Shown here: piece after piece, positions 1,926 through 54,361 of the stretch
Position numbering within the stretch: the first letter of the stretch is position 1
How the letters are laid out: the number at the start of each line of letters is the position of its first letter
DNA from: Chiloscyllium plagiosum
Lineage: Eukaryota
Reading direction: 5' to 3'
Length of the DNA: 54,933 nt
Assembly: GCF_004010195.1 (NCBI RefSeq)
Contig: NC_057749.1
Coordinates: 6,106,637-6,161,569, forward strand
Position numbers and translations under genes: made by a program
Notes under the pieces: model-generated
The model's database searches: none
Told to the model about the DNA's origin: nothing
What the model saw: the letters and a program-made list of their open reading frames with translations, nothing else

Positions 1926-2129
1926 TCAAAGGAGAAAATTGTGATTAAGAAAAAGGGAGTTTGGAATGTTCAAACAATTATTAGAAAGAATGTCCAACAA
2001 AAGAGGTTATTGAGTTGTCCTTTAATTTTTTTGAAACTGGTAATTTCTTTTCTTGTACAATAAATTTTCATGCTACACAGGAAAATAGCACAACACCAGG
2101 TTATAGTCCAACAGGTTTAATTGGAAGCA

Positions 2130-2164
2130 CACTAGCTTTCGGAGCGCCGCTCCTTCATCAGGTG
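2130..2164 (-). ncRNA. Minimal type I hammerhead ribozyme motif (antisense arm)
   Basis: Reverse complement reads CAC-CTGATGA-A-GGAGC(GGC)GCTCC-GAAA-GCTA-GTG. Confidence 0.8.
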
Positions 2165-2178
2165 GTTGTGGACACTAT

Positions 2179-2213
2179 CACCTGATGAAGGAGCAGCGCT
2201 CCGAAAGCTAGTG
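2179..2213 (+). ncRNA. Minimal type I hammerhead ribozyme motif (PLE-type)
   Basis: CAC-CTGATGA-A-GGAGC(AGC)GCTCC-GAAA-GCTA-GTG: stem I CAC/GTG, intact core, 5-bp stem II, palindromic AGCT replacing stem III, CUA cleavage triplet. Activity not shown. Confidence 0.8.
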
Positions 2214-3039
2214 TGCTTCCAATTAAACCTGTTGGACTATAACCTGGTGTTGTGTGATTTTTAACTTTGTACACCCCAGTTCAACACTGGCACCTCCAAA
2301 TCAGGAAAATAGCATGTTCTACAGAAGTGCTTTAGTTGCCGGGCATGTTGTAGTGAGGCCACTGAGAGGGTGACTGTACACAATAATAATTTGGTTAGAG
2401 CTGTAGATTGGCTTCCCTGGAGTGAAAGCTCTAAAAGCACACAGATTATCCGAACATTTGTAGTTGCACAGCAATTACCCCAAGCAGCATGGTATCTGCA
2501 GAAGAGGTGTGTTTTGTTGCTGGTTTTCCCTTCACAAAGCTCCTATGAAGCTTTTTGTTAACAAGTTGTGATTTAACAAGGTAATAACTGCTTTGCAATT
2601 TACAGCTCACAACTGCTGCTAGGAAGGCAGTAGTGTAATGGTACTGTCATAGAAGAGTAATCCCAAGTCTTCCATTAATGCTTTTTGGGATATGGGTTCA
2701 AATCCCATCAAGGTAGCTTGTGGGATTCAATGAATAAATCTGACATGTAAAGCTTTAAGGGCAATTAAGGAGGGATAGCAAATGTTGTCAAATGCCTGTA
2801 TCCGATGACAGAATTTTTAAGCAAATCTTGGGTCCATCCATGGCACTAGTTTTTGTTCCCATGTTTATCTATGAACATTAAGAAAATAATAGGTAGGATG
2901 AGACAAATCAGGTCTGTTTTCTCTAGAATTTAAAAGAATAAGGAGTGATCAAAGTCTTCAAGATTTTAACAGGAAAAATATGGTAGATAAAGATAAACAA
3001 TTATCATTAGTTGGGTGTTATAGAATTAGGGGGCATAAT

Positions 3040-3135
3040 CTGAGGAAGGGTCACTCAAACGGAAACATGAACTCTGATTTCTCTCCACAGCTGCTGCCAG
3101 ACCTGCTGAGCTTTTCCAGCAATTTCTATTTTTGG
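3040..3135 (+). mobile_element. Old PLE-like 3' terminal fragment with decayed hammerhead core, inside an old CR1 fragment (~2890-3210)
   Basis: CTGAGGAAGGGTCACT..GAAACATG..CTCTCCACAGCTGCTGCCAGACCTGCTGAGCTTTTCCAGCA. Related copies on the - strand at ~29750-29870, 36040-36160, 39095-39222 and 52265-52360, and on + at ~30675-30748. Confidence 0.55.
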
Positions 3136-3417
3136 CAAATCTGCGAATTAGTGCCAGACCAATCAGGTGGTAGATGTTTGAAACTCTCATCCACACGCAA
3201 ATGGCAGTGGACTCTGTTCTATTAACCTGATATATGTGTGTAAGGTATGATTTGTCTGGTTAGTATGCAAAACAATAATTTTCACTGTATCTCAGTACAT
3301 GTGGCAATAATGTATCAAATTAAATCAAATTGTTTCAAAAAAGGTGTTTGCTTTGGAGAAATGAAGGTTGAGAGAAGTGTTCAAAATCCAGAGGAGTTGG
3401 ATGGGGACAGTTGTCAA

Positions 3418-3652
3418 TGTAGTGACTGCAATTAGGTCAGCCAGCTGGATCTTGTAGATTATGAGTTCACTGATTGGGCCTGGTAATCTTTTTCAACCAG
3501 GGAGCCCTGGCTGACAGATAAAAAGAGGAGTGTCAGAGATTTCGGCACTCTGGGTGCTGTCTCTGATGAAGCTATGCCAGTGTCAAAGATTCTCCATGTG
3601 TGAATAAAGGATGACTTGGTGACAGGATAGCAGCCTCTGTGGAGTTAATTCA
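3418..3652 (+). mobile_element. Probable solo LTR
   Basis: 235 bp bounded by TG...CA, with TATA-like GATAAAAA (~3517), AATAAA (3603-3608) and a near-perfect 5-bp TSD GTCAA/GTCAT (3413-3417; 3653-3657). Confidence 0.6.
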
Positions 3653-4397: not shown

Positions 4398-5817
4398 GGA
4401 TTAAGGTAAAAATAATATATAGCCACAATTGTACGGGCACCTCATGAGCACCACTGTGCCCACATGATAAAATCAGCGAATGATAGAGCACAGATAGACC
4501 CCATTCAGCTTATTCCTGTTTGGAAAACAAGCAGCCAATCGGGCGGCATGGTCCCTCAGTGGTTAGCACAGCGCCAGGGACATGGGTTCAAGCCCTAAGC
4601 TTGGGTGACTATCTGTGTGGAGTTTGTACTTTCTCCCGTGTCCATAAGACATAGGAGAGGAAGTAAGGCCAATCGGCCCATTGAGTCCACTCTACCATTT
4701 AATCATGGCTGATGGATCTGTGCAGGTTTCCTCCCACACACCAAAGATTGTCTGTGGTGTCTAGGGATGTGTAGGTTTAACCACAGGAAATGCAGGGTTA
4801 TATTTCTGAGCAAATGCAGCTTTTTCTTTCCTGAGCCCATTTTTTAACCCGAGATCAAGATTCATCAATGTATAATCATTGGTAAAACAGGCTCTGGTGG
4901 TGCAGTCATGGTGTCTCGCCCTCTGGCTAAGGAAGTCCAGTTTCTTTGAAGGTTAGTATGGGCTGAATGGCCTCCTTTCATACTGAGCAATACAGGAGGA
5001 GAAGGAATTTGCAAAATTTCCAAGCACAAAATGAAACTGAACCAGCGATCAGGTTGGTAACGGAAGTACAAAAAGGGCTAACAGTCAGAGATCTAAGAGC
5101 TTGGCTATGTGCAACCGAAATGCTGGATATTCCACATGCTGTTTGAAGGAGTAGAGTAGTCAGATTCAGGAAATCATAGAATCCCTTCAGTACGGAAGGA
5201 GGCCATTCAGCCCATACCAACCTTCAAAGAGCATCCTACCCTATCCCTATAACCCTGCATTTCGCATGGCTAAACCTGCACATCCCTAGACACCACAGAC
5301 CATCCACCAAACCTGCACATCTTCGGTTTGTGGGAGGAAACCTGCACAGACCCATCAGCCATGATTAAACGGCAGAGTGGAGTCAATGGGCCGAATGGCC
5401 TTACTTCCACTCCTATGTTTTATGGACACAGGAGAAAATGCAAACTCCTGGCACTGTGAGACAGCAGTGCTTACCACTGAGGAGCCATGCCACCCAATTG
5501 GCTGCTTATTTTCCAAACAGGAATGAGCTTAATGGGGTCTATCTGTGCTCTATCATTCGCTGACTTCTATCATGTGGGCACAGTGGTGCTCATGAGGTGC
5601 CCGTTCAGTTGTGGCTATATATTATTTTTACATTAACCCATTATATGACTGACCTCTGAGGCAGGTGAGACTTGAAACTGGACTTCCTTAGCCAGAGGGC
5701 GAGACACTATGACTGCACCACCAGAGCCTGTTTTACCAATGATTATACATTGATGAATCTTGATCTCAGGTTAAAAAATGGGCTCAGGAAAGAAAAAGCT
5801 GCATTTGCTCAGAAATA
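4398..5817. repeat. Complex local inverted duplication
   Basis: 4398-4802 matches the reverse complement of 5248-5639; 4801-4944 matches rc of 5674-5817; 4943-4986 matches rc of 5187-5230. Includes non-repeat flank plus an HE1 SINE carrying the same nested LINE tail in both arms. Confidence 0.92.
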
Positions 5818-11042: not shown

Positions 11043-11074
11043 AAAATGTATCCACTTAGATATTTCATGATAAC

Positions 11075-13935: not shown

Positions 13936-14165
13936 GTCGAGAGTGTGGTGCTGGAAAAGCACAGCAGGTCAGGCAGCATCCAAGGAGCAGGAGAATCGAC
14001 GTCTCAGGCAAAAGCCCTTCAGGAATAAGGCCTCATTCCTGATGAAGGGATTGTGTCTGAAACATTGATTTTCCTGCTCCTTGGATGCTGCCTGACATGC
14101 TGTGCTTTTCCAGCACCACACTCTTGAATCTGATCTCCAGCATCCACAGTCCTCACTTTTTCTTC
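13936..14165 (+). mobile_element. Fold-back PLE-derived insertion, family A
   Basis: Inverted arms GAGTGTGGTGCTGGAAAAGCACAGCAGGTCAGGCAGCATC..AAAAGCCCTTC and TTCCTGATGAAGGG..GATGCTGCCTGAC..GCTTTTCCAGCACCACACTC, plus terminus CTCCAGCATCCACAGTCCTCACTTT. Hammerhead cores decayed. Confidence 0.85.
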
Positions 14166-17186: not shown

Positions 17187-18188
17187 ATCAGAGTGGTGCT
17201 GGAAAAGTCAGGCAGTATCCAAGGAGCAGGAAAATCAATGTTTTGGGCAAAAGCCCTTCATCAGGAATAGAGGCAGGAAGCCAATAAAGATAAATGGGGG
17301 GCGTGGGGCTGGGGGGAAGGTAGCAAAGAGTACAATAGGTGAATGGGGGTGGGGATGGAGGTGATAGGTCAGAGAGGAGGGTGAAGCGGATAGGTGGGAA
17401 GGGAGATTGACAGGCCATGAGGAAAGTGCTGAGTTGGGAGGTTGGTTGAAGATGCCCTCCAACGCATCTCATCCACATCCCGCACCTCCACCCTCAAACC
17501 CTACCCCTCCAACCTTCGCATTAACCACATCATCAGCCGACATTTCTACCTCCTCCAAATGGACCCCACCGCCAGGGATATATTTCCCTCCCCCTCCCCT
17601 TTCCGCTTTCCACAAAGACTGTTCCCCCCGTGACTACCTGGTCAGGTCTATTACCCCCNNNNNNNNNNNNNNNNNNNNNNNNNNNNNNNNNNNNNNNNNN
17701 NNNNNNNNNNNNNNNNNNNNNNNNNNNNNNNNNNNNNNNNNNNNNNNNNNNNNNNNNNNNNNNNNNNNNNNNNNNNNNNNNNNNNNNNNNNNNNNNNNNN
17801 NNNNNNNNNNNNNNNNNNNNNNNNNNNNNNNNNNNNNNNNNNNNNNNNNNNNNNNNNNNNNNNNNNNNNNNNNNNNNNNNNNNNNNNNNNNNNNNNCAGC
17901 ACCATCCTCATGACCTGTCCTACCTGCCAATCTCCCTTCCCACCTATCCGCTCCACCCTCCTCTTTGACCTATCAGCTCCATCACCACCCCCATTCATCT
18001 ATTGTACTCTTTTGTACCTTCCCCCGCCCCCCGCCTCCCCATTTATCTCTCCACCATGGAGACTCCCTACCTCTATTCCTGATGAAGGGCTTTTCCTGCT
18101 CCTCGGATGCTGCCTGATCTGCTGTGTTTTTCCAGCACCACTCTGATCTAAACTCTGGTTTCCAGCATCTGCAGTCCTCTCTTTTGCC
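17187..18188 (+). mobile_element. Penelope-like element 3' fragment with inverted 5' arm, family A (contains assembly gap)
   Basis: 17187-~17440 is the reverse complement of 17897-~18150. The ORF-derived part 17449-17658 begins with sequence matching the PLE at 27420. Perfect 15-bp TSD TAGGGGATTGTTAAG (17172-17186; 18189-18203). Confidence 0.88.
17659..17896. other. Assembly gap (238 N)
   Basis: Run of n characters. Confidence 1.
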
Positions 18189-23588: not shown

Positions 23589-24075
23589 AGGAGAAAGTGA
23601 GAACTGCAGATGCTGGAGACCAGAGTTGAAAAATGTGGTGCTGGAAAAGCGCAGCAGGCCAGGCAGCATCTGAGGAGCAGGAGAATCGACATTTCGGGCA
23701 TAAGCCCTTCTTCAGGAATGACAGGTCTGGGAGAGTGTTGACCTGAGCTGGGGCAGAGCTGACTGCAGGGAGTGTAGGTAGCGGCGCATGGCCGCGAGCG
23801 TGGAGTGGAGAATCCGGAGGGAGGTCTGTTGTTGGAGGCTTCGGATTTGTTGCAGATACTGGTTGTCCTGGTTGGGTCCAAATTGTGTTGGTCTGAATGT
23901 AGTCTGGAGTCCATGCGGGGTCAGTCGGTTCCATAGGCAGGTGCTGAGGAAGGAGATGTGGCTGTGGTAGCGAGTCTGTTTCAGGACGTGGCTGAAGAGC
24001 TTCAGGGCAGAGGAGATGACTTGGGGGAAGGGCTTATGCCTGAAACGTCGATTCTCCTGCTCCGCGGATGCCACC
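23589..24075 (-). mobile_element. Fold-back PLE insertion, family A, enclosing a ~300-bp open ORF fragment
   Basis: Full terminus arm 23589-23720, short inverted arm ~24027-24072, and stop-free minus-strand frame VISSALKLFSHVLKQTRYHSHISFLSTCL..TLAAMRRYLHSL between them. Perfect 14-bp TSD ATGACTAGACAGAG (23575-23588; 24076-24089). Confidence 0.85.
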
Positions 24076-24093
24076 ATGACTAGACAGAGCTAA

Positions 24094-24290: not shown

Positions 24291-24691
24291 AAGAAGGGTG
24301 TCATAATAGCTTTGTTCAAAAACTGAATCCCAAAAAAACATTTAGAAGAGTCAAAGAGGATAATTTTATTAAATTACTAATTTTCCTCATATCAGTAGAA
24401 ATGAACAAACAAAATGGCTGCAGATACAATTACAACATTTAAAAGACATTTGAACAGGAAAGGTTTGGAAGGACATGGGCCAGGAGAAGGCAGGTGGGAC
24501 TAGTTTAGTTTGGGATTATGTTCAACATGTTCTGGTTGGACCGAAGGGTGTGTTTCTGTGCTGTATATCTCTATGAAAGGGTAATATTGGGATAAAAGAA
24601 ATTAACAGACTAAATGTGCTTCACAAAGTGAGATCTAGCATTAACGTGTAACTGTCCTAACTACAGATAATTGGAGTACTTTAAATTTGAA

Positions 24692-24936
24692 AGTTAAAAA
24701 TCACACAACACCAGGTTATAGGATCAGTGGTGCTGGAAGAGCACAGCAATTCAGGCAGCATCCGAGGACAGGCAAAATCGACGTTTCGGGCAAAAGCCTT
24801 TCCAGCATCTGCAGTCATTGTTTTTACCAGGTTATAGTCTGGCACTGGTACCTCTAAATCATGGTTGGACTATAACCTGGTGTTGTATGATTTTTAACTT
24901 TGTACACCCCAGTCCGACACTGGCACCTCCAAATCA
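24692..24936 (+). mobile_element. Family B fold-back with a family A-like element nested inside (24722-24825)
   Basis: Inner element bounded by 12-bp TSD ACCAGGTTATAG (24710-24721; 24826-24837). Outer element ends CACCTCCAAATCA. Confidence 0.82.
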
Positions 24937-25650
24937 TTTAAATTGCATGTGGTGGGGATGAAGAAGAAATGAGCGATTTCCACATCTGAGGAGAATGAGA
25001 TTCAATCCACGGTTTGGGTCCATCGGTAGTTATTACAATAGCAATGAATAAGGAAATGGCTTTGGTCTCTTAAGATTCCCTTCATTATGAATAAATATAA
25101 AGTAGCTTATTCAGTGAGATCCTCCATGAATGAATAGATAATAGGCTGGTGGACTGGGATCCCTTTATCTGAATCAGAATCAACAAAAGGACCATTCTTG
25201 AGCAATCTATTGTGCTATAAGCACTGGTTTGAATTAGCCAGAGGGCATGTTGGTTGCAAAACACTTGAGTTTGAACTAAGATAAAGTGGGGTAGTACTGC
25301 TAGATACTGCCTGTTATTCTGTCTAATTTTTTTTGGTCTAATTTTCTGTTACTTCACTATAAACCACCTGATAATTGCTTTACTAGTCAATGGGAACAAT
25401 TTTTGAAAAGACAAGTGTCCTTAGTGACTTCCTTTTGTCTGGTTTTTTTGCAGTGTTTTTGCAAGCTATAATTAGTTGAATCTCTCTGTTTCCTTTCTGG
25501 CCTTTGATTTTAAAATTAAACTAAACTTCGAAAATATTTAAACTTCGCGTGTTCAGCACTCCTGTACCAATCCGGAAATCAGGCGTGAAGCTATAAGACA
25601 GCCAAAATCAGACGCCCAAATTCTAGAGATTCCCATCCTGCTTCATGTGT

Positions 25651-25838
25651 CTAGATTAGAGTGGTGCTGGAAAAGCACAGCAGGTCAGGCAGCTTCCTAG
25701 GAGCTGGAAAATCGACGTTTCAGGCAAAAGCCCTTCAGCAGGAATCTGCTCCTGGGATGCTGCCTGACCTGCTGTGCTTTCCCAACAGCACTCTAACCTT
25801 GACTCTAGTTTCCAGCATCTGCAGTCCTCACTTTTGCC
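25651..25838 (+). mobile_element. Fold-back PLE-derived insertion, family A
   Basis: Arms TTAGAGTGGTGCTGGAAAAGCACAGCAGGTCAGGCAGC and GCTGCCTGACCTGCTGTGCTTTCCCAACAGCACTCTAA; terminus TTTCCAGCATCTGCAGTCCTCACTTTTGCC. Confidence 0.82.
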
Positions 25839-26751: not shown

Positions 26752-27131
26752 GTGGACAAGCAGGAGGCTGGAAGAACACAGCAAGCCAAGCAGCATCGGG
26801 AGGTGGAGAAGTTGATATTTTGAATGTAACCCTTCTTCAGCATTGGGGGTTGTTGTAAGGGGAGCTGCAGATAAAGGGGGTGAAGGGTGGGAGGGACAGA
26901 GTGGTGAGGTGAGGATAGGTCACTGCCACAGCACTGTGACCTCTTCAGCCTTCCAGCTTTTTGACCATACTTTATGTGCAGCTCCCCTTATACCCACCCC
27001 AGTTCTAAAGACGGGTTACCCCCAGACACTTCGACTTCTCCACCTCCTGATGCTGCCTGGCTTGCTGTGTTCTTCCAGCCTCCTGCTTGTCTACCTCGGA
27101 TTCCAGCATCTGCAGGTTTTTTTGTCTCTAA
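26752..27131 (+). mobile_element. Fold-back PLE-derived insertion, family C
   Basis: Arms GACAAGCAGGAGGCTGGAAGAACACAGCAAGCCA.. and ..TGGCTTGCTGTGTTCTTCCAGCCTCCTGCTTGTC; terminus TTCCAGCATCTGCAGGTTTTTTTGTCTCTA; TCTTTTAAG on both flanks. Confidence 0.8.
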
Positions 27132-27350
27132 CCAATGTCATCTTTTAAGCCCAGTTGAGAGAGTTGACGGGACCCAGGAAAACAGTTTAATAAAAGTAAA
27201 TCATAGTATTAGAGAACCTTGGAACTGCTCTGTCATCAGAGGGAGACAATTGGTGGTGAGTTTAACCCAAGGGTTACCACCCCTCAGATAACATTGAGAA
27301 GACAGAACTTTCATGGAGAGCTTGTCTGTATGTGACTTGAGCCCATACTA

Positions 27351-28216
27351 TTGGCATCCACAGAACACACCAGACGGTCTCCTTCTTTAAAGACCGTAAT
27401 TTCCCTTCCCACATGGCTGAAGGTGCCCTCCAACACATCTCATCCACGTCCCACACCTCTGCCCTCAAACCCCACCCTTCCAACCACAACAAGGATAGAG
27501 CCCACCCCCCCTCCCCTGCCACTGCAGGAATTGCAAAACCTGCACCCACACCTTCTCCTTCACCTCCATCTAAGGCCCCAAAGGAGCCTTCCACATCCAT
27601 CAAAGTTTCACTTTCACTCGCACATCCACCAATGTCATCTATTGTATCCATTGCTCCCGAGGCGGTCTCCTCTACATTGAGGTGACTAGACACCTTCTCG
27701 CAGAGTGCCTTAGGGAACATCTCCAGGACACCTGCACCAATCAACCCCACTGCCCCGTAACCGAACATTGCAACTCCCCCTTCCACTCTGCTGAGGGCAT
27801 GCAGGTCCTGAGCCGCCTCCACCGCCACTCCCTCACCACCCGACGCCTGGAGGAAGAACGCCTCATCTTCCGCCTCAGAACTCTTCAACCCCAGGGCATC
27901 AATGTGGACTTCACCAGTTTCCTTATTTCCCCTCCTCTGACCTTACCCCAGTTCCAACTTCCAGCTTAGCACCATCCTCAATACCTATCCTACCTGCCAA
28001 TCTTCCTTCCCACTTATCCGCTCCACCCTCCTCTCTGACCTATCACCTTCATCCACACCTCAATCCACCTATTGCACTCTCAGTTACCTTCTCCACCATC
28101 CCACCCCCATCCCATTTATCTCTCCACCCCGGAGGCTCTCTGCCTCATTCCTGATGAAGGGCTTTTGCCTGAAACGTCGCTTTTCCTGCTCGTCGAATGC
28201 TGCCTGACCTGCTCTG
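27351..28216 (+). mobile_element. Penelope-like retroelement 3' region with frameshifted GIY-YIG endonuclease
   Basis: Frames give TSTNVIYCIHCSRGGLLYI, LAECLREHLQDT..HCNSPFHS and RRLEEERLIFRLRTLQPQGINVDF, the PLE GIY-YIG signature. Followed by a C-rich 3' UTR and a hammerhead. Confidence 0.88.
28148..28180 (+). ncRNA. Minimal hammerhead ribozyme motif in PLE 3' end
   Basis: TTC-CTGATGA-A-GGGC(TTTT)GCCT-GAAA-CGTC-GC: intact core, stem II with a G-U pair, palindromic ACGT, GUC triplet; stem I weak. Confidence 0.72.
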
Positions 28217-29026: not shown

Positions 29027-29975
29027 CCATTATTGCTTCCTTGGAATTTGGCATTCCTGCATTTGTCCTGATAAGTACAAGATGAAAAACTTTGACAACA
29101 CGTCTCCTTTTCAGCAAAACTCAATTTCTGTATTGCAATCCATAAATTGTCATATTGATTAAAGCAGTCAATTTGCAAGAACCTGTTAAAGCCGGTGAAC
29201 TATAATTTTGAAAGCGTTAAATCCCTAAGCTACCATCTTTTCAATTCAGGCAGTGCTCAGAGGTTTGCAATCTTGAATCTAGACCTTTCATTTTTTAATT
29301 GCCAAAATTATGTTGCTCTTTACTTTTTTGTCGGCTGAATGAAGTAATGAGTTGAACAGATAATGGAAGGAGAATGACTGAAAGTCAGCCTGTGACCTAA
29401 TCAGTGGAACAGTCCTCTGAGAGTAGGAGAAAGCAATGTAAATTTGACAATATAATTGAAATCACAGAACATTATAATTTTAATAAGTAATCTGTTACTT
29501 GTCAGATTTTTAGATTATTCTGATAGTGATTTAACAGAGCTATTGTTAAAAGAAATCTTGGTGCATTTTAGTACTTTTTAAAGCGATGCAGAGATTATTG
29601 AGATTGCAACTGCAATAATTGAGTTGGAATTCATACTAAATAATTGCTGTTAGAAAATGTTCTTTTTAATCACGTAAAGAGGCACAGGGAACCTTACCAA
29701 GAGAGAGTTTACTAAGTTGATGTTATATTTTACATTTCTTGAAAAACAAAGTACTGCAGATGTTGGAAATCTGAAATTCTGAAATCAGAAAATGCTGAAA
29801 ATAGTCAACAGGTCAGTCAGCATCCGTGGTGAGAAGCAGGGTTAATGTTTCAGGTTGTCAAGCTTTCACTGGGGATATCGCTCCTACATTTCTTTGAAAT
29901 AGAAACAAGGGATTTTTATATCCACCCAAGCAGATAGGTTTCACATCTTATTGAAAGACAGTGCCTCCATCAGTA

Positions 29976-31211: not shown

Positions 31212-31400
31212 TAGGAGAGAGTGAGGACTGCAGATGCTGGAGATCAGAGTCAAAAAGTGTGGTGCTGGAAAAGCACAGTAAGGCAGGCAACATCCGAGGA
31301 GCAGGAGAGTCAACGTTTCATGATGCCCGAGATGTCGACTTTCCTGTTTCCCGGATGCTGCCTGACCGGCTGTGCTTTTCCAGCACCACACTTTTTGACT
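31212..31400 (-). mobile_element. Fold-back PLE-derived insertion, family A
   Basis: Arms AGTCAAAAAGTGTGGTGCTGGAAAAGCACAG and CTGTGCTTTTCCAGCACCACACTTTTTGACT; degenerate TSD TATTATAAATC/TACTATAAGTC. Confidence 0.83.
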
Positions 31401-32172: not shown

Positions 32173-32917
32173 ACAATATAAAATGAGTATTGGAACATGC
32201 TGGAGATTGCAGATGATAGAAAAGGAGTTTTCTAGTAAGCTTTGCAACAGCATTTTGCTGCTGAATCTTTTCTCTTCCATTTCCTCCTCTACTTCTTTCA
32301 TAATTCCATTTAGTTGCTCGGAATGCTTTAAGCCAAGTGTTCCGGGCACCTCTTCAGGCCATTTGGAAGAATGGGCGAACCCAGTGGAATTGCACTGACA
32401 GGACAATTCTGTTGAAACAATGGAAGTGACACAAGCAGGTCAGACCACAAGGAGGGGACAGATGGCATCCACTTGCTCCAATTCCGGTCTCAAGTGTTGC
32501 CCGTGTGGAACTGGCTGAACAAGTTGCAGGTCAACTAGATGCAGAACATCTGCCAGGCAACCTCTGGCAAGCAATTTAATTCACAGCTTGATATTGGCTC
32601 CAGACAAGCTGCAAGTTCCATGTGAGGCTGAAAGGGAAAGGCACCCTCCTCTCTATTGATTCACTCTGCGTTCGCCACCCTTTCTTTATCAGTCAGAGTA
32701 ATGGATGCTCTTCAGAGGGTGGGTGCAGACTCGATGGGCTGAACGGCATCTTTCCACACTGTAGGGCTTCTATGAGAACTGTTAGACCAAAAGACACTGG
32801 AGCCATGGAAGGCCATTCAGCCCATCGAGTCTCCTCCACCATTTATTGAGATCATGGCTGATTTGATCATTGTCAACCCCACATTCCTGCTTTTTCCCTT
32901 CCTGATTAAACATCTGT

Positions 32918-33117
32918 GGTGCTGGTCAGACAGCATCCGAGGAGCAGGAGAGTCGATGTTTTGAGCATAAAATCTTCATCAGGAATGTGATGAAGGGCTT
33001 ATTCCTGAAACCTCGACTCTCCTGCTCCTCAGATGCTGCCTGACCTGCTGTGCTTTTTCAGCACCACACTTTTTTAACTCTGATCTCCAGCATCTGCAGT
33101 ACTCACTCTCTCCCAGT
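32918..33117 (+). mobile_element. Fold-back PLE-derived insertion, family A, inside a CR1 3' UTR
   Basis: Arms meet at ..CTTCATCAGGAATGTGATGAAGGG..; TSD TGATTAAA(C)ATCTGT at 32903-32917 and 33118-33131. Confidence 0.83.
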
Positions 33118-36238: not shown

Positions 36239-36315
36239 ACAAGAGACAAAAAAAACTACAGATGCTGGAATCCAAAGTTGACAAGCAAGAGGCTTGCTGT
36301 GTTCTTCCAGCCTTT
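36239..36315 (-). mobile_element. Miniature (77 bp) family C PLE-end insertion inside a SacSINE1-like SINE
   Basis: rc terminus AGAGACAAAAAAAACTACAGATGCTGGAATCC plus a short opposite-strand piece GGCTTGCTGTGTTCTTCCAGCC; perfect 11-bp TSD TGCACAGATTA (36228-36238; 36316-36326). Confidence 0.78.
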
Positions 36316-38990: not shown

Positions 38991-39311
38991 TTGGCTGGGT
39001 AATACCAGGCCATCCTGGTAAAGTTGTTGAGCTGCCAACAAATGCAGGCTTGGGAACCCAATTTATACTGTGACCTTGGGATCCCCAAATAAACCAAACT
39101 ACTGCAGATACTGGAAAATCTGAAATGAAAGCAGAAGTTGTTGGAGAAACCCAGCAGGTCTGACAGCATCCGTGGCTCGAGAAAGCAGACTTAACATTTC
39201 AGGACCAGTGTCCCTTCTTTAGAAGTGAAGCAGAACTACCATTCCCAGACAGATCGATTGGAGAATCATACTTGACTGCAGATACTCCCTGGAATGGCAT
39301 TGACAGAGGAA

Positions 39312-39529
39312 AGTTAGAAGTCACACAACACCAGGTTATAGTCCAACAGGTTTATCTGGAAGCCCTAGCTTTCAGAGCGCTGCGCCTTGTGGTTGTCACC
39401 TGACAACCACCTGATGAAGGAGCAGTGCTCCAAAAGCTAGTGCTTCCAAATAAACCTGTTGGACTCTAACCCGGTGTTGTGTGATTTTTAACTTTGTACA
39501 CCCCAGTCCAACACCGGCATCTCCAAATC
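39312..39529 (+). mobile_element. Fold-back PLE-derived insertion, family B
   Basis: Same arms and terminus as 2091-2301; TTGACAGAG duplicated at 39300-39308 and 39530-39538. Sense hammerhead has GAAA mutated to AAAA. Confidence 0.85.
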
Positions 39530-42391: not shown

Positions 42392-42596
42392 AGAGATAAA
42401 AAAACTGCTGATGTTGGAATCCACAATAGACAAACAGGAGGCTGGAAGAATGCAGCAAGCCAGGCAGCAACAGGAGGTGGAGCAGCCATGTTTCGGGTAT
42501 AACCCTTCATCAGGCCGGGTCTCGATCCAAAACGTTGACTCCTCCACCTCCTGTTGCTGCCTGGCTTGCTGTGTTCTTCCAGCCTCCTGTTTGTCA
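42392..42596 (-). mobile_element. Fold-back PLE-derived insertion, family C
   Basis: Arms GACAAACAGGAGGCTGGAAGAA and TTCTTCCAGCCTCCTGTTTGTC; minus-strand core CTGATGA-A-GGGT(TAT)ACCC-GAAA at ~42490-42513. Confidence 0.82.
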
Positions 42597-46290: not shown

Positions 46291-47207
46291 GACTATCCTT
46301 AATTCTGGAGTGTCAGCAGCATGGTTGAAGTAGAAGATGGTTGCACTGCTGTACTAAAGGGCCATGGTCTTTATACCCCAAGTGTGGATCAAGAGCTAAA
46401 GCAACAAAGCTGTTGGACAAAGAACACAAACTACTTATTGGTGATAACCCCTATGAGGCCCAAAGAGAATTATTGATTCATCTCATTGTGGACGTCATAG
46501 AGAAGAGTTCTCTTGGTAACTGGCAACAGCCTGCCGCGCTGAAACTCATCAGTTGAGCCATCTTATAACCCCCTCTTCCACAGTTACATTTGTGCCCAGA
46601 TTTCCTTTGAGAAGGAGCACAGTGTATCCATAAATGCTGTCAATGCCTCAGAGAGAGAGGTGGGCACTGCGTCGGATACTGTGCTTTATACCCCCCCCCT
46701 CCCCAACTCCAGTTCCTCCTTCCAACTCTAACTTTGGTTTCGTCCCTTCCTGCTCTCCCTACCCCACCTCACCTTTGAAAGTTGCATTACCTTGAATAAG
46801 CTTTGCTTGTAAATATTCAGTTGGATACATGGGTGTTTTTACTGATGGTGCTGTGCTAGCTATAAACAAAAAGAAAAAAAATCGCAGTGATTTTGGTGGT
46901 GGGAAGGTGCTCAGTTGTGTGTGATAACACTTCTGGGCAGAGAAAGAAAGGGATAAAAAGCAGATGCAGATTAGGTCTGCAGAACTGTCTGTCCCAGTCC
47001 GGGAACGAGTGTATCTATTCCATGAGTCGTGGCTCTGTTTTGGTATTCAGCATAAATGAGGCTCCTTTCCAGTCAGGCTTCCTAAGTTATTGCATTATTA
47101 GTTGTGCCAGATTAGTGCATGAGAATGAGGCAGCATTTACAAGTTATTTGTCTGCAATCAATTTTGCTTGAGCTGGAGATATTGGAGGGAAGGATGTAGG
47201 GGGTAAG

Positions 47208-48100
47208 ATGAAACTGAGCAAGGAGGAACAGTTCCCTCTGGGACACTCTGATTCACTCCTCCTTCACTCCCAACACCTCTCCACTCCACAATGGCAGCTT
47301 CTGCATGCAATCGCAGAAGGTGCAGCATCCACCTGTTTATCTCCTCACTCCTCTCTATCCAAGGTAAAGCAGCAAGTTAGCTGCACTTCACTCAATCTAG
47401 TCTACTGTTTTTGCTGCTCACAATGTGGCCTCCTCTACACTGGGGAGGTGAAGTGCTGACTGGGTGACAGTTTTGTAGATTATTGTCTGTGAAAATGACC
47501 CTGAGCTTCCAGTTGCCTGCCACTTTAACCCACCACTGTGTTCCCTGGTCACCATCTCTGTCACAGGCCCACTGCAGTGTTCTAGTGAGCCTCAGTGCAA
47601 TCTGAAAAACAATGTCTCATTTTCCACTCGGGAACCCTGCAGCCTCTAGAACTCACCATTGAATTCAATAACTTTACAGCCTGATTCCATCTTTCCAGAC
47701 TTTTTAAAAACTCAGCCCATACCCAGTCCTGTTAAGACATGGGTTGCTTTCAGCACAGTCACCCATTCCCAAATATTCCTAAGTCCATCATCGCATGTTA
47801 TGGGCTGCATTCAACATAGCTCATCCATTTTCTCCTACTCTGAGTTGTTATTATCACCGACTGTATTTAGTTTATCTTCTATCCTGGCCTGCTACCCATA
47901 ATGCCCTTATTTCCCTACCCCTTTTGTATGTCTCTCCTTCTCTGGGCTCCATCTCCACCTATCTGCAACTCAGCCAACGCTGTCTATCTCATACGCTGCA
48001 GGAGAGTTGATGTTCCAGGCTTAAGCCTTTCATAAGCCAGTCCTTACTTCCTCCTAGTTGCTGAAAACTCTCCAGCATCTGCAGTCCTCACTTTCTTCTT
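47208..48100 (+). mobile_element. Old Penelope-like element 3' region (decayed GIY-YIG)
   Basis: CTSLNLVYCFCCSQCGLLYTGEVK*LGDSF and ..GTLQPLEL motifs; ends with terminus CTCCAGCATCTGCAGTCCTCACTTTC. Confidence 0.75.
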
Positions 48101-48770: not shown

Positions 48771-48800
48771 GGGAGTCAGTGCCTCGATTCTGGGTTTATA

Positions 48801-49298: not shown

Positions 49299-49734
49299 GT
49301 TTCGGGGCTTGAGCATGAAACATAATTGACATGTTCCAGAAGCAGAATTTGGGAGTCCTGGAAACAGGTTAGATGTGAGATGGAAAGCTGTCTAGTTGTG
49401 ATGATACAGAGATAAGGATTTGATCTCACAAATCAAGTAGCTGCCATTGGAAATGTCAATAGATTTGAATCAAGATACAGGTGACAAATGCTAATTAACT
49501 AATCATGTATCCATGCTTATCAGCGGGCAATGGTGATATCACTTATCCTTGCCATTCCTTTGACTGAGAGACAAAATGATGAGGTCCCTGGACAGTGTGG
49601 ATCGAGAAAAAAGTGTTCCCATTGTTAGAACAAGATGGCACAGGTATTTGACTAAAGTAGTAATGGAGACATGAGGAAAGATTTGTTCTCCCTGCAAATG
49701 GTTAGGTCTAGAATGCATTGCCCAAGACTGTGAT

Positions 49735-49950
49735 GTAGACAAACGGGAGGCTGGAAGAACACAGCATGCCAGGTAGCATCAGGAAGTGGAGAAGTTAACG
49801 TTTCAGGTATAACCCTTCTTCAGGACTGAAGAAGGGTTATTCCAGAAACGTTGACTTCTCCAGCTCCTGATGCTGCCTGGCTCATTGTGTTCTTCCAGCC
49901 TCCTGCCTGTCTACTTTGGATTCCAGCATCTGCAGTCTTTTTTGTCTCTA
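49735..49950 (+). mobile_element. Fold-back PLE-derived insertion, family C
   Basis: ~90-bp arms meeting at ..CCCTTCTTCAG-GA-CTGAAGAAGGG..; both arms have CTGAAGA..GAAACGTT; TSD CAAGA(C/T)TGTG at 49723-49732 and 49952-49961. Confidence 0.85.
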
Positions 49951-50964
49951 ACAAGATTGTGCGGGAGGGAGGATCGATTGAGGTGTTCGACATGGGGTTG
50001 GATTTTTATTCAAAAGAGAAGGTGGTGCAGGGGAATAGCACTGGGTGCATTGCTAATTTGGAGATGTAGAGCAGTTATGACAGGCTGAATGGCCCCCATT
50101 CTATAATTCTATGACAGATCTTAGGGGGACATTATTTTAAGAAACCTTTTTAGAAATTTGTTTCTAAATTATCAGCAAGAATTACTGACTACTGATTCCT
50201 GTGTGTGTGCACAAAAGCAAGCTCTGTAGCATTACAGAAAGCATACCTATCTGCTAAAAACTATCAAAAAAGATGAATGATACTAAAACTGTTCAGAGAT
50301 CATATTCTCTATGTAATTCGATGCGACTTAAATTTAACATTAAGTCTGATTAACTGGGAAACTATTTCATTCATGCTATTTCTAATGGTCCTCACCATTC
50401 CCACTAAGAATTCTTAGTTTGCAAGTCTGACATTCCTGTCAGCTTTGTCCGAAACAAAAATGAATTATGAATTCTTCAGAATACAGCAAGGAGTCTGATT
50501 AAATGTGTTGCAGGTGATCGAATGGTTGGGAGTTATTGTGTTGTTTGATATCAGATGGATTTCAATGCATTTCAATAAGGGCTCATTGAGTTGGAGATGC
50601 TGAGATTAGCTGGTCTAACAATAGGAGCAGTCAATATCTTTGCTACTTAATTCAGTTGCAGCTGAGGAAGTATTCTTTGGACTTGAATTGCATGTCGTGG
50701 TCTTGCATCAATTAATTCACAATTCCAGTGATGGAAGCTTAAAAGAATTTCTGCAGTGACATGGAAGCATTGGTGTCAGCATTGCGATCCCAGCAGTTGT
50801 GAGAAGCTGCATCAAAGAGACTGCAGCTTTTTAATGAACTGTTCACTTTAAGTTCTCTTTGTTTGACACTGTGCACGACGAAAGTAAAAAACAATCAATT
50901 CTGTCAATGTTGTTTAGCTAAAACAAACAGAAACATCTCCCCAACAAGCTACTTACATAGGCAT

Positions 50965-51408
50965 TGGAAGAGTACAGTGGATCAGGCAGCATCCAAAGAG
51001 CAGGAGAATCGACGTTTCGGGCATAAGCTCTTCATCAGGAGTTTTTAATCGGAAAGAGAAGGTGGTGGAGGGCAACAGCGCGAGGTGCATTGCTAATTTG
51101 GAGATGCAGCGCACTTACGACAGGCTGAAGGCCTCCTTTCTGTAATTCTGTGACATCTTAGGGGGACAATATTTTAAGAAACCTTTTTTAGACACTTGTT
51201 TCTGAATTATCAGCAAGAATTACTAACTGCAGATTCCTTTATGTGTGCACATAAGCAAACACAGTAGCATCACAGACACATTCCTGATGAAGTGCTTATT
51301 CCCGAAATTTCGATTCTCCTGCTCCTCAGATGTTGCCTGACTGGCTGTGTCTTCCAGCACCACATTTTTCAACACTGATTTCCAACATCTGCAGTCCACA
51401 TTTTCTCC
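50965..51408 (+). mobile_element. Family A fold-back PLE insertion carrying a copy of neighbouring intron DNA
   Basis: Left arm to 51040, spacer 51041-51276 homologous to 50003-50238, right arm 51277-51408; flanks CAAGCT...TACATAG on both sides. Confidence 0.85.
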
Positions 51409-51472
51409 CAAGCTTTATACATAGTCCACTCTGATTTAGACTTTTGGAATCCTGTTGTTTTAAGGTCAGCTA

Positions 51473-52040
51473 CATAGAACATAGAACAGTACAGCTCAGG
51501 AACAGGCCCTTCAGCCCATGATATTGTGCTGAACATGACGCCAAATTAAACTAATCCCTTCTGCCTGCACCTTGGTCCACGTCCCTTTGTTCCTTGCATA
51601 TTCATGTGCTCATCTAAAAGTTCCTTAACCACTACCTCCCCCCCACCCCCATTGTACCTGCCTCCAGCACCACACCAGGCAGAGCGTTCCAGACTCCTAC
51701 CACTCTCTGTGTAGAAGACTTGACCCTCACATCTCCTTTGAACTTTCCCCCTCTCACCCTAAAGGCCTGCCCCCTAGTTTTAGACATTTTGACCCTGGGA
51801 AAAAGTTTCTGACCATCAACCGTCTAATTTTATAGACTTACCCTCAGCCACCGCTGCTCCAGAGAAAACAACCTGAGTTTTTCTAGCTTCTCCTTATAGC
51901 TCACATCCTCTAATCCAGGCAACACCCTGGTAAACCTCTTCACCTTCTCCAAAGCCTCCACATCCTTCCTGTAATGTGGCAACCAGAATTGAACACAATA
52001 TTCTAAGTGCGGCCAAAACAAAATCTTATAAAGCTGCAAG
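51473..52040 (-). mobile_element. 5'-truncated CR1 LINE
   Basis: ORF 51830..52039 PHLEYCVQFWLPHYRKDVEALEKV; (CATAGAA)n tail. Confidence 0.87.
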
Positions 52041-53329
52041 CTCTCAGCTGTAACCCTTTAGTGTCTGACAATTGAAGCCAATTGGAAGACCTGGATTAAT
52101 GTAGAATTACAGAATGGTGACAAGATGATCAAGAGATCAAGGCAATGGATTGATAATCCACTGTTCTCTGTGTGCGAGAGTTTGGAAACCATCCTTGTCA
52201 CACAGGGGTAGTTTCCCTACCTTTGGCCTGATGGTTTGAATGCACATCCGATCTTAGAGCATAAAACAAACACAGAGAATGCTGACAATACACAACAGGT
52301 CTGGCAGCACCCATGGAGAGAGAACCAGAGCTAACATTTGGTGTCTGGCTTGACTCTTCTTTAGGAAGTCTGAACAGGTTTGTTCAAGGTATCTAGAATC
52401 ACAGAATGGTCACATGACAGAGGGAAGTCATTTATCCTTTGATTCCTGGTAATTTAGCTATTCCCAATCTATGTTTTCCCTGCAACCCTGCAAATTTTAA
52501 CCTGAGAAGTACCAATACTTTCTGAAAGTTATATTTAATGTGGCTAACACATTTGCAAGCAATGCATTTCACGTCTCAATGAGTAAAAGGCTCTTCCTCC
52601 TATTGCCTTGGTTCCTTGACTATTCACTTTACATCTGTAGGCACTGTTGCTTGAACTGTCCTTCACTGGGAACAGGTTTGCCTTACCTTCTTTGTTAAGC
52701 CCTCTCATGATTTGGACTACCTCAAATAAATTTCCTCTCCACCTTCCCTTCTCAAGGGAGACCACCCTCGGCTTTTTTCAAGTTATTTGCATAACTGAAA
52801 TCCCCTCATTGCTCGGAATGTTAAGACCATAAGAATATAAGACATTGGAGCAGAAAGTACGCCATTCAGCCCATGAGTCTACTCCACTATTCAGTCATGG
52901 CTGACAGGCTTCTCAATCCTATTCTCCCATAACCTTTGATCCCCTTGACAATCAAGAACCTCTCTATCTCAGTCTTAAATGTCAACCTCTTCCACATCCT
53001 TCCCAAAACCATCAAAATCAGATATCAGAATTGCATTCCCCATGCCCCTAGTCCATTAGCAATTTGCTGTCGGAGCTTAAGCTGCTGATAATTGGTGGTG
53101 AGTGGATTTTCCATTACCCTGTGCCACCCCTTCTGCCCCCACCCCTTCTGCCCCCATCCCCATTGATACGTTTGAAAATTGAAAATTCTCCCATAGGTAC
53201 TGCGGTCCCAAATTAATCTCCAATGCCACAGTTTTCAAATTGTGCCCTTAATAGGTCTGACCCTGCTGCACATAGAAAACTGGGGCCGAGTTTTTACTTA
53301 TTAACATTTGACATGCAATAGAAAGAAAA

Positions 53330-53756
53330 ATCTTTTAATCATATAACTCTTTCATGACAACAAAATTCCCCAAGCACTTTACAGGAAATCTGGTACTTTC
53401 TGCAGTGTGTCTACTGTTGGAATCTAAGATTCATAGCAGGCAGTTAGCAATCAGAAAGCTTCCAAAATCACAATGGGATAACAACTAAATAATGAGTTTT
53501 ATAAAATTGATCAAGGAATAAACATTGGTCAGGACACCAGCATTGCTTAACTGCCTTCCGACATCAACATCAAAGAGAGACCAGAAGGAGCCTCATTTAT
53601 AAGTTTCATCTGAAAGTTGGTACCTCCAGTAATGCAGCATTCTCTCAATACTGCACTGCAGTGTTAGGTCACGTGCTTTGCTTTAGGCCTCTGGAGTGAG
53701 ACTTGAGTCTGCAATCTCTTGTCCCAGTGAATACCACCAGCTAAGGCACAGCTGAC
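53330..53756 (-). mobile_element. SacSINE1/DeuSINE-like SINE (other pieces ~26560-26750, 29900-29975 plus 30415-30500, 35985-36420, 39890-40030)
   Basis: TCATCTGAAAGTTGGTACCTCCAGTAATGCAGCATTCTCTCAATACTGCACTGCAG matches 1771-1826. Confidence 0.6.
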
Positions 53757-53771
53757 ACAAAATAAATGCTG

Positions 53772-53928
53772 AGGAGCAGGAGAATCAATGTTTCACACAT
53801 TCCTGATGAAGGACTAATGCCCGATATGTCGATTCCCCTGCTCCTCCTATGCTGCCTAGCCTGCTGTGCTTTTTCAGCACCCCACTCTCGACTCTGACCA
53901 CTAGAATCTGCAGTCCTCACTTTCTCCT
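53772..53928 (+). mobile_element. Fold-back PLE-derived insertion, family A, with very short inverted arm
   Basis: Perfect 15-bp TSD ACAAAATAAATGCTG (53757-53771; 53929-53943); inverted stub AGGAGCAGGAGAATCAATGTTTC, then CACATTCCTGATGAAGG to the terminus. Confidence 0.85.
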
Positions 53929-54361
53929 ACAAAATAAATGCTGTTTTATTCTGAGACTAGCGAGTGATAATTTCTCTATCAGGGACGATGGATCACTTTT
54001 TAGTGCAATCTCTGGATTGATGCATTTCAAATCAACTAGGAATTTATTTTGCTCTTATAAAGTCCTTTGTAACATCATTTAACATTTCATTTCTCACCAT
54101 TCGTAATCTGTGCAACCAAATGGTTTAGAAATAATTAATTAGAGTGAGCAATCCATTTTCCTCACTAATTAATGTGGGCAACTCTTACTGTGGCATGATT
54201 GATGAAGGGGCAACGTTGTTGGATTAACCCCTTTGCTCCAATAAGTACATCATGTTATATCTTCCAACTTTCTTCGTCATGTCTAGTTTCTGTCTCAAGG
54301 TTTGAAGTTTTGAATGGTTGTATCACCAACTGGCATTTTAGTAAGAAGAGTTTGCAAATGT

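Follow-up and report, generated by a model that had tools for sequence, protein, structure and literature searches.

A 54,933-nt stretch of the shark Chiloscyllium plagiosum genome (GCF_004010195.1, NC_057749.1, 6,106,637-6,161,569, forward strand; hereafter the window) contains short inserts that fold back into hairpins. Are these a family of non-autonomous elements that propagates itself, or products of autonomous Penelope-like elements (PLEs)? We find that each insert carries PLE 3'-terminal sequence in both orientations inside one target-site duplication (TSD). The fold-backs are probably dead-on-arrival insertion products of shark endonuclease-bearing PLEs, from three pseudo-LTR (pLTR) families with minimal hammerhead blocks.

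Fold-back insertions and their target sites

The initial annotation proposed about 15 insertions (16 positions were listed) in three sequence families with one layout. All 16 sites are present with that layout, which amounts to one fold-back per 3.4 kb (16 per 54.9 kb). Named by their listed positions, nine belong to F1, the family A of that annotation (13936, 17187, 23589, 24722, 25651, 31212, 32918, 50965, and 53772), three to F2 (2091, 24692, and 39312), and four to F3 (26752, 36239, 42392, and 49735). In all of them, a TSD is followed by an inverted copy from which the last 18-83 nt are missing, a spacer, a sense copy that extends to a near-fixed terminus, and the TSD again.

2091..2301 (+): F2 fold-back; two 80-nt arms, 96% alike, separated by 2 nt; right arm with a 49-nt tail; strictly intact minimal hammerhead in each arm; exact 13-bp TSD (2078-2090 / 2302-2314)
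13936..14165 (+): F1 fold-back; arms ~95 nt, 87% alike; spacer 0; tail 38 nt; decayed TSD (12/15)
17187..18188 (+): long F1 fold-back; inverted tail-less arm 245 nt; sense arm running from PLE coding sequence through an assembly gap (17659-17896) to the terminus; tail 41 nt; arms only 76% alike; exact 15-bp TSD (17172/18189)
23589..24075 (-): F1 fold-back; spacer 316 nt, coding for part (residues 24-126) of a shark family of N-terminal ORFs and meeting the hammerhead block at its 5' edge; 77 nt missing from the short arm; exact 14-bp TSD (23575/24076)
24688..24936 (+), listed as 24692: F2 fold-back; inverted tail-less arm 36 nt, sense arm 73 nt; additional ~20-nt sense copy of the tail end; 8-bp TSD; host of the nested F1 insert below
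24722..24825 (+): F1 insertion lying within the F2 arm; inverted tail-less arm 77 nt; sense piece ~27 nt, tail only; exact 12-bp TSD (24710/24826)
25647..25838 (+), listed as 25651: F1 fold-back; inverted arm extends 39 nt further inward than the sense arm; tail 35 nt; TSD 12/14
26752..27140 (+): F3 fold-back; arms ~160 nt, 76% alike; spacer 16 nt; tail 35-46 nt; exact TSD core of 9 bp
31212..31400 (-): F1 fold-back; arms 72 nt, 83% alike; spacer 9 nt; tail 36 nt; weak TSD (9/11, p = 0.16)
32917..33116 (+), listed as 32918: F1 fold-back; arms 61 nt, 82% alike; spacer 6 nt; exact TSD core of 8 bp
36239..36315 (-): smallest F3 fold-back, 77 nt; end-bearing arm ~52 nt and inverted piece ~25 nt, hardly overlapping; exact 11-bp TSD (36228/36316)
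39309..39529 (+), listed as 39312: F2 fold-back; arms ~90 nt, 83% alike; spacer 2 nt; tail 34 nt; TSD 11/12
42392..42596 (-): F3 fold-back; arms ~79 nt, 86% alike; spacer 11 nt; tail 37 nt; TSD 10/12
49733..49951 (+), listed as 49735: F3 fold-back; arms 88 nt, 85% alike; spacer 4 nt; tail 37 nt; TSD 9/10
50961..51408 (+), listed as 50965: F1 fold-back; arms ~76 nt, 82% alike; spacer 241 nt, no origin assigned; short arm lacks 52 nt; TSD 13/16
53772..53928 (+): F1 fold-back; inverted arm only 30 nt, lacking 83 nt; exact 15-bp TSD (53757/53929)

With all fold-backs placed in one orientation, the left overhang measures 0-9 nt, while the overhang of the end-bearing arm (the tail) measures 18-83 nt, and 34-49 nt in 10 of the 16. 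Spacers are 16 nt or shorter in nine fold-backs and 34-316 nt in the remaining seven, one of which includes the assembly gap and another the nested insertion.

TSD length varies from 8 to 16 bp. The six TSDs reported initially as perfect, at 11-15 bp, are indeed all exact. When ungapped flank matches were scored against those of 3958 position pairs drawn at random from the window, 15/16 fold-backs exceeded the random 95% point (p < 0.05), the exception being 31212; boundaries had been placed by eye beforehand, which biases this score toward matches. The nested insertion also has a paralogous empty site. The 12-mer flanking 24722-24825 occurs once per intact F2 arm, and removing the insert and one repeat leaves a gapless alignment to the other F2 arms (32/34, 31/34, and 20/20).

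Because the TSDs enclose the whole hairpin and not one arm, it is extremely unlikely that the hairpins are fold-back rearrangements of plain truncated copies after insertion, or assembly artefacts. PLE inverted structures are known to trouble assemblies, according to PMC8557442, and the longest copy does contain a gap. However, one oriented layout is seen 16 times across three families, and the arms within fold-backs have diverged to 73-97% identity, which argues against an artefact at the level of reads.

A modal form exists in all three families, comprising 7-9 of the 16 elements: the arm with the tail measures ~125-135 nt and the arm without it ~80-97 nt, and at most 16 nt lie between them. 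The earlier statement that arm lengths and spacers differ in every copy was thus too strong. Such a form is what might be expected of hairpins that propagate themselves, either as MITEs moved by a DNA transposase or as hairpin SINEs copied whole from masters. MITEs are short hairpin-forming inserts with TSDs; their terminal inverted repeats are symmetric and their TSDs constant in length. The shark fold-backs resemble them in being short hairpin inserts with TSDs, but their TSD length is not fixed and their ends are never symmetric. Furthermore, the short arms have outer ends spread over ~15 nt, arm lengths range from 30 to 245 nt, and alignments show no substitutions specific to one arm type. 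The long copy 17187 continues into PLE coding sequence, and no transposase accompanies the families among the 15 ORFs scanned. Self-propagation by either route is very unlikely, and the variable TSDs, scattered outer ends, and asymmetry uphold the initial view that these are not copies of a DNA-transposon MITE master.

PLE ends and hammerhead blocks

The window also holds related pieces that lack the fold-back layout.

27390..28216 (+): solo F1-type PLE fragment; no inverted arm; lacks about the last 61 nt
24092-24146 and 24188-24292 (-): two F2 pieces lacking the tail, neither with a clear partner arm; an exact 13-bp repeat (24081-24093 / 24166-24178) brackets the first
29743..29880 (-): solo older PLE-type 3' end; no inverted arm
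39101-39220 (-), 30662-30760 (+), and 3040-3130 (+): similar solo pieces
48071-48099 (+): tail-only piece

The first of these comprises a decayed GIY-YIG endonuclease frame (ORF 27574-27969), a 3' UTR, and a hammerhead block. It matches the F1 arms at 76-89% identity, so the family A arm is, as had been noted, the sequence at the end of the GIY-YIG element, although this copy stops short of the terminus. F1 arms extend upstream into coding sequence at 27390-28216 and 17431-17658. The ORF is 74% identical, over 82% of its length (E 5.7e-39), to a shark protein (P0001) with reverse transcriptase (RT) and GIY-YIG matches, the latter just under the Pfam cut-off. Searching the decayed frame of the window itself with Pfam gave no GIY-YIG match, and neither a full-length PLE nor an RT joined to F1-F3 ends occurs in the window. 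The continuity of F1 with the GIY-YIG frame, together with the similarity to P0001, indicates that the arms are the ends of endonuclease-bearing PLEs. For F2, it is the shared architecture that suggests a PLE origin, since the window holds no F2 coding partner.

The F1, F2, and F3 blocks all have a CUGANGA core, an extra nucleotide before helix II, a G10.1-C11.1 pair, GAAA, and a palindromic 15.2-16.2 pair, with the helix III loop absent. These are the core features of metazoan PLE minimal hammerheads, as given by Cervera and de la Pena 2014 (PMC4209133). In contrast to those, only two arm copies here pass a strict minimal-hammerhead descriptor, the others being decayed and helix I weak. The two matches, both predicted ribozymes, are the two arms of 2091; the same descriptor found none in any of 200 Markov-simulated windows. 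Rfam hammerhead models gave no match, even at E up to 10. The block is nonetheless recognizable in 29 arm segments, counting three references, and its decay is quicker at CpG (25-33% off the majority base versus 6-12% elsewhere). F1 continuity, P0001, and the descriptor match together sustain the identification of the arms as 3'-terminal pLTR sequence of GIY-YIG PLEs with a minimal hammerhead block. Judging from sequence, the hammerheads are likely to be passengers in the fold-back copies: in a fold-back transcript, each would be locked inside a long hairpin.

F2 and 23589 could instead come from hammerhead RNAs of a retrozyme-like kind, tandem or circular, that PLEs mobilise, and not from PLE mRNAs. 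The sense side of 23589 is permuted: ORF residues 24-126 abut the hammerhead block at its 5' edge with nothing in between. A single round of a circular or tandem unit would produce this arrangement, which therefore counts for such an origin, as does the missing F2 coding partner. Vertebrate non-LTR retrozymes, one chondrichthyan genome included, are proposed to be PLE derivatives in a preprint (10.64898/2026.07.22.740005). As described there, metazoan retrozymes are, like the shark copies, short non-coding hammerhead sequences related to PLE pLTRs; they form tandem arrays, whereas the shark copies are inverted pairs. No hammerhead tandem array occurs in the window, where Tandem Repeats Finder reported five short rows, none of this kind. 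Moreover, the join in 23589 lies at the hammerhead 5' edge and not at the predicted cleavage site, and no link to PLEs was found for the ORF family in its spacer. We regard this origin as improbable.

Inner ends, tails, and the origin of the hairpin

The inner ends of the arms are not placed at random. In 10/16 fold-backs, no more than 10 nt separates the inner ends of the two arms; within-family permutation gives a mean of 5.2, and 0.34% of 20000 permutations reach 10. Positions -14 to +1 of the CUGAUGA box contain the inner ends of nine of 16 tail-bearing and eight of 16 tail-less arms, with all three families represented. Exactly one arm has the terminal tail, of ~35-45 nt, in all 16 fold-backs. 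An inverted copy of the last 30 nt was found beside the short arm in none of them (scores 10-19 of a possible 60; null 95% point, 16). Arms of the same element are not each other's nearest relatives (3/28 arms). These relationships fit a star-like family and lend no positive support to the PLE fold-back model.

The anole PLE protein, studied in purified form and predicted to dimerize, cuts both target strands and extends them; synthesis begins at two neighbouring positions inside the RNA, and the distance between these corresponds to the tail (PMC11167929). The initial proposal that the hairpin is built at integration fits this activity. A shark PLE protein would nick both target strands with a stagger. 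One target 3' end would then prime cDNA at the distal RT start site, giving the tail-bearing arm, while the other would prime at a proximal site ~35-45 nt upstream, giving the inverted arm without a tail. Both cDNAs would extend toward the 5' end of a short template, stopping in the modal case ~10 nt upstream of the CUGAUGA box. Their tips may be joined by template jump or repair, leaving 0-16 nt of filler at the hairpin centre. The one-tail rule is not predicted by PMC11167929, since both start sites were used alike on both strands in vitro. The 76% similarity of the 17187 arms next to an exact TSD likewise counts against this reading. Two primers alone also leave the coincidence of inner ends unexplained, unless the cDNAs share one template or one 5' end.

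This coincidence would be accommodated if, with the same PLE origin, the hairpin were one cDNA that primed on itself. Synthesis would start at the distal site, reach the template 5' end, fold, and copy itself up to the tail before ligation into the staggered break. Self-priming has been proposed for PLEs on the basis of palindromes at inverted junctions (PMC3846280). The tail on a single arm and the short spacers agree with such a course, and the inner ends coincide beyond chance, with three of the nine elements that do not have both ends at the hot spot among them. However, the tail-less arm reaches further inward at 25651 (39 nt), 24722 (where the sense piece is tail only), and 36239 (22 nt); these would need later deletions, because a copied arm cannot exceed its template arm. 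The dissimilar arms of 17187 beside a perfect TSD also speak against snap-back, as does the cutting and extension of both target strands in vitro. We consider it possible, though rather unlikely.

Comparison with known PLE insertions

LINE-1 twin priming, reportedly described by Ostertag and Kazazian in 2001, is said to involve a second priming on the other strand that leaves an inverted 5' segment inside one TSD. There the inverted piece is the upstream neighbour on one RNA, whereas here both arms copy the same region and a hairpin results.

PLE insertions themselves offer closer parallels. According to PMC8557442, they are strongly 5'-truncated, often with an adjacent inverted 5'-truncated copy, and have a tail of 30-40 bp, often on a single end. 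One insertion described in PMC3846280 has an inverted pLTR shorter by 37 bp, a tail of 31 bp, and TSDs of 8-10 bp. An inverted truncated copy, a one-end tail, and short TSDs are thus described PLE features (PMC8557442, PMC3846280, and PMC8969392), and the initial suggestion of an under-described non-autonomous retroposition mode does not hold, as the layout is already published as PLE hallmarks. What had been called distal truncation of the antisense arm is the known PLE tail.

The shark inserts share with the complex insertions of Arkhipova et al. 2013 (PMC3846280) and Craig et al. 2021 (PMC8557442) heavy 5' truncation and, immediately upstream, an inverted copy that is itself 5'-truncated. 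In both, a single end has an extension of ~30-40 bp, TSDs are short and variable, the repeat contains a hammerhead, and the inverted junction is palindromic. The shark inserts differ in that most copies are just the last 77-230 bp, without an ORF or a direct pLTR pair, and in that the inner junction clusters at the hammerhead 5' edge; the host is a shark, and three families are involved. With PAc, the Poseidon PLE of the anole (Frangieh et al. 2024, PMC11167929), they would share nicking and extension of both target strands and two internal RT start sites spaced as the genomic tail; the AC-rich start region also has a counterpart, the F1 proximal site lying in an AC-rich stretch of the alignment. 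PAc start sites are alike between strands in vitro, whereas shark fold-backs always have the tail on one arm; nor do shark TSDs look obviously AT-rich.

Since the inverted copy with a tail was already described for PLEs, the shark pattern is real but mostly ordinary. New are the details: the tail on one arm in 16/16, inner ends that coincide beyond chance, and their clustering at the hammerhead 5' edge. The copies look like by-products of autonomous PLEs, not a self-propagating non-autonomous family.

Architecture and target sites of the fold-back insertions

All 16 sites proposed in the initial annotation are fold-back insertions, and each could be placed by reference-arm searches. They fall into three arm families. 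Self-comparison of the window (54,933 bases, including 238 N in a single stretch at 17659-17896) against its opposite strand returned 22 local inverted pairs. Each fold-back consists of a tail-less inverted arm, a spacer and a tail-bearing arm, enclosed by one target-site duplication (TSD). Elements are named by their start coordinates.

Fold-back insertions by arm family
F1 (family A of the initial annotation), nine elements: 13936, 17187, 23589, 24722, 25651, 31212, 32918, 50965, 53772
F2, three elements: 2091, 24692, 39312
F3, four elements: 26752, 36239, 42392, 49735

A 15-nt word near the end shared by F1 and F3 occurs 18 times in the window with up to 3 mismatches, compared with a mean of 2.27 and a maximum of 6 among 100 shuffles. 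The modal product pairs an arm of ~125-135 nt with one of ~80-97 nt, and the spacer is no longer than 16 nt in 9 of the 16 fold-backs.

The overhangs are one-sided, and the layout was described correctly at the outset. We oriented each element with the arm that reaches the family end on the right. The left overhang is then 0-9 nt. The right overhang, or tail, is 34-49 nt in 10 of 16 elements (18, 25, 52, 68, 77 and 83 nt in the other six), in agreement with the 30-40 bp one-end tail of canonical endonuclease-bearing (EN+) Penelope-like elements (PLEs). In all 16 cases the tail is restricted to exactly one arm. In none of the 16 are the last 30 nt repeated in inverted form beside the short arm (scores 10-19 of a possible 60, with a null 95% point of 16). 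The truncation reported for the antisense arm is therefore a real pattern, but it is the known tail on one end of a PLE.

TSDs are short and variable (8-16 bp), as in canonical EN+ PLEs. Six had been called perfect, and these are exact at 13, 15, 14, 12, 11 and 15 bp. Flank matches were compared with those at 3958 pairs of positions drawn at random from the window, with element boundaries set by eye in a way that favours matches; under this scoring, 15 of 16 elements exceed the 95% point (p < 0.05), the sole exception being 31212 (p = 0.16).

One site can be compared with its empty state. The F1 copy at 24722-24825 was inserted within an F2 arm, and its flanking 12-bp repeat is present as a single copy in each intact F2 arm, which provides a paralogous empty site. 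When the insert and one repeat are removed, the sequence aligns without gaps to other F2 arms (32/34, 31/34 and 20/20). The sense arm of this nested copy is tail only. In the F2 fold-back at 24688-24936, ~20 nt of the tail end are present as a sense copy at 24838-24861, ahead of the longer sense arm, as if a first start had been aborted before a second one. At 23575-24181, one target word occurs three times (~23580, 24081 and 24166), and a 13-bp exact repeat (24081-24093 / 24166-24178) brackets a tail-less F2 piece. Here, an F1 fold-back and the tail-less F2 piece seem to have entered a single site successively.

These features make it unlikely that the population was copied from a hairpin master, either a MITE or a SINE. 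A MITE has a fixed-length TSD and symmetric terminal inverted repeats that run to both ends, whereas the fold-backs have TSDs of variable length, outer ends spread over ~15 nt, and ends that are never symmetric, one of them always carrying the extra 18-83 nt. Non-LTR retrozymes, in turn, are head-to-tail tandem repeats of hammerhead units; the window has no such repeats, and no hammerhead-unit array is among its five Tandem Repeats Finder rows.

PLE-type pieces lacking an inverted arm number at least six in the window; their self-inverted scores (17-24) stay below the 95% point of shuffled sequence (26). A clear partner arm is also missing for two tail-less F2 pieces at 24092-24292.

Solo PLE-type pieces
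27390-28216
29743, reverse strand
39101, reverse strand
30662
3040
48071, tail only

The window also contains other inverted repeats. One is a large nested inverted duplication of ~1.4 kb at 4398-5817, with arm segments that are 79%, 93% and 99% alike; it is not PLE sequence and contains a tRNA-derived SINE-like stretch. Further local inverted repeats lie at 9608-10463, 15665-17027 and 44213-45005, two with ~330-nt arms at ~70% identity and one with 49-nt arms at 94%. A sub-threshold tRNA match at 22663-22739 on the reverse strand (25.1 bits; gathering score 29) possibly marks the head of a SINE derived from tRNA.

Penelope-like origin and the hammerhead motif

F1 sequence runs upstream into coding sequence in two copies, 27390-28216 and 17187. 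The former holds a decayed frame with a GIY-YIG pattern, and its open reading frame (ORF) at 27574-27969 is 74% identical (E 5.7e-39) to a 486-aa predicted shark protein, P0001. P0001 has two domain matches, both slightly below the Pfam cut-off: one to a reverse transcriptase (RT; RVT_1, E 0.0077) and, after it, one to GIY-YIG (E 2.5e-4; 21.7 bits, cut-off 22.6). Their order fits that of canonical EN+ PLEs, in which the RT precedes a C-terminal GIY-YIG endonuclease. Pfam finds no GIY-YIG match in the window's own frames, including ORF 27574-27969. The apparent spacer of 17187 translates into the P0001 stretch that precedes the endonuclease, so its sense arm is merely a longer 5′-truncated copy. 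This extension of one long copy into coding sequence also argues against a hairpin master.

We place F1 with the canonical endonuclease-bearing PLEs on its predicted domain order and terminal architecture. F3 has the end motif and block order of F1, and F2 is assigned to PLEs through its architecture only. No full-length or tandem copy with an ORF between pseudo-LTR terminal repeats (pLTRs) is present in the window, a statement that applies to the window and not to the family. Among 15 window ORFs, the sole Pfam match is RVT_1 at 45742-46353 on the reverse strand (E 2.1e-23), and 5 further ORFs gave nothing relevant. The only PDB matches of this RT fragment are weak, to RTs of group II introns and to Cas-linked RTs.

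The 316-nt spacer of 23589 contains a different ORF fragment. Its reverse strand at 23722-24026 codes for residues 24-126 of an ORF family of hemiscylliid sharks, helical and N-terminal, and the spacer directly abuts the 5′ edge of the hammerhead. There are 47 related proteins at E ≤0.001, all of 93-478 aa, the best being 87% identical. No Pfam domain was found in three of these relatives (P0002-P0004) or in 19 others, and protein atlas look-alikes are generic helical only. When translations of the F1 end were compared with the N-termini of P0002-P0004 for a PLE ORF start, alignment scores were weak (21-36). The fragment may represent the N-terminal part of a shark PLE ORF.

A hammerhead motif is present by descriptor in the terminal repeat and is a predicted ribozyme. 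The descriptor comprised a CUGANGA core, an optional extra base, a helix II of at least 3 bp closed by G-C, GAAA, a complementary 15.2/16.2 pair, U, and then not-G. It matches strictly at two places, both arms of the 2091 element, and never in 200 simulated windows. The block is decayed yet recognisable in 29 arm segments (three references counted), with decay concentrated at CpG positions (25-33% off the majority base versus 6-12% elsewhere). Rfam hammerhead families gave no matches at gathering thresholds and none among 19 matches at E up to 10. These misses are expected because PLE hammerheads are minimal forms without helix III, according to the pertinent passages of PMC4209133. In a fold-back transcript, the predicted hammerhead motif would pair with its own complement.

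Proposed priming and joining of the two arms

The architecture of the fold-backs is already known. The initial annotation had proposed an under-described mode of retroposition, and while its account of origin holds and its mechanism broadly does, the novelty of the architecture does not. In the relevant passages of Craig et al. 2021 (PMC8557442), PLE insertions are heavily 5′-truncated, often with a directly adjoining inverted 5′-truncated copy, and have a tail of 30-40 bp, often at one end only. The inverted 5′-truncated copy, a hallmark of PLEs, adjoins the insertion in the 16 fold-backs. Passages of Arkhipova et al. 2013 (PMC3846280) similarly describe inverted pLTRs 37 bp shorter than direct ones, a 31-bp tail and TSDs of 8-10 bp, and infer self-priming from palindromes at inverted junctions.

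The two priming events that had been suggested match published biochemistry. Purified PLE protein cleaves and extends both target strands, and RT starts at two neighbouring internal sites, separated by a distance that corresponds to the tail (Frangieh et al. 2024; PMC11167929). Steps past first-strand synthesis have had no experimental validation so far (PMC11167929). Start-site use is alike on both strands in vitro, whereas every fold-back in the window has its tail on one arm. We favour a mechanism with two target-primed cDNAs per insertion, one primed by each nicked target strand. The distal RT start site would serve one cDNA and the proximal site its counterpart; both cDNAs would reach the shared 5′ end of the template and then be joined.

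Alternatively, each hairpin could derive from a single cDNA that snaps back on itself. This would account for the short spacers and the single tail equally well as two cDNAs do; however, at 25651, 24722 and 36239 the tail-less arm holds sequence that is absent from the other arm, so that later deletions would be needed, and we regard snap-back as doubtful. Comparison of partner arms is uninformative here because the families are star-like: only 3 of 28 arms have their partner as closest relative. TSDs of 12-15 bp are perfect in four F1 elements, yet F1 arms are off the family majority at 12% of non-CpG positions, and the arms of 17187 are just 76% alike. The arms of a fold-back may be non-identical at birth.

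The inner ends of the two arms tend to coincide. In 10 of 16 elements the distance between them is at most 10 nt, compared with a mean of 5.2 under within-family permutation (10 was reached in 0.34% of 20000 permutations). Three of these ten are among the nine elements with at least one arm end outside the hot spot, an interval from −14 to +1 of the CUGAUGA box that was picked after inspection of the data. Within it end 9 of 16 tail-bearing and 8 of 16 tail-less arms, from all three families. Three regularities go beyond the literature consulted: the one-tail rule, the coupling of inner ends, and the clustering of arm ends at the hammerhead edge.

A further reading, which we offer tentatively and consider rather improbable, is that the fold-backs record a reaction in which two primers act in a coupled way on one short RNA. 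In this scheme, both RT start sites of one leader RNA would be engaged simultaneously by a dimeric PLE particle, with one nicked target strand receiving the distal site and the second strand the proximal site. The two cDNAs would then terminate by run-off at one discrete RNA 5′ end, located at the hammerhead's 5′ edge, and would be linked by a template jump from end to end. If true, this would jointly explain the single tail (16/16), the coincident inner ends (10/16) and the hot spot ~10 nt upstream of the CUGAUGA box (9/16). It would also mean that the main template of the mini-insertions is short pLTR leader RNAs, not 5′-truncated full-length RNAs.

Implications for shark genomes and PLE integration

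For the most part, the PLE insertion signature has been correctly rediscovered here: the observation is confirmed, its architecture is already known, and a few regularities are measurable. F1-F3 may be uncurated in the shark host. Our literature search found no description of shark PLE fold-back mini-insertions, which is weak evidence of absence.

Such fold-back hairpins make up ~4.5 kb of the 54.9-kb window (~8%) and are open to mislabelling as MITEs or microRNA precursors. Six fold-back segments have sub-threshold Rfam matches to microRNA precursors (22-37 bits against gathering scores of 62-137). These matches reflect hairpin shape only, but annotation might mistake the loci for microRNA genes, and the loci might also produce small RNAs.

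Sub-threshold microRNA-precursor matches in fold-backs
13949-14114
25674-25778
26846-27000
32936-33034
42459-42565
49794-49857

PLE hairpins can also break assemblies. The longest fold-back contains the window's sole gap (17659-17896), which is consistent with published remarks on assemblies broken by PLE inverted structures.

Tail restriction to one arm, coupling of inner ends and the hammerhead-edge hot spot can each be tested genome-wide. Large populations of tiny, complete, TSD-bounded products such as these provide a natural record of the final stage of PLE integration.
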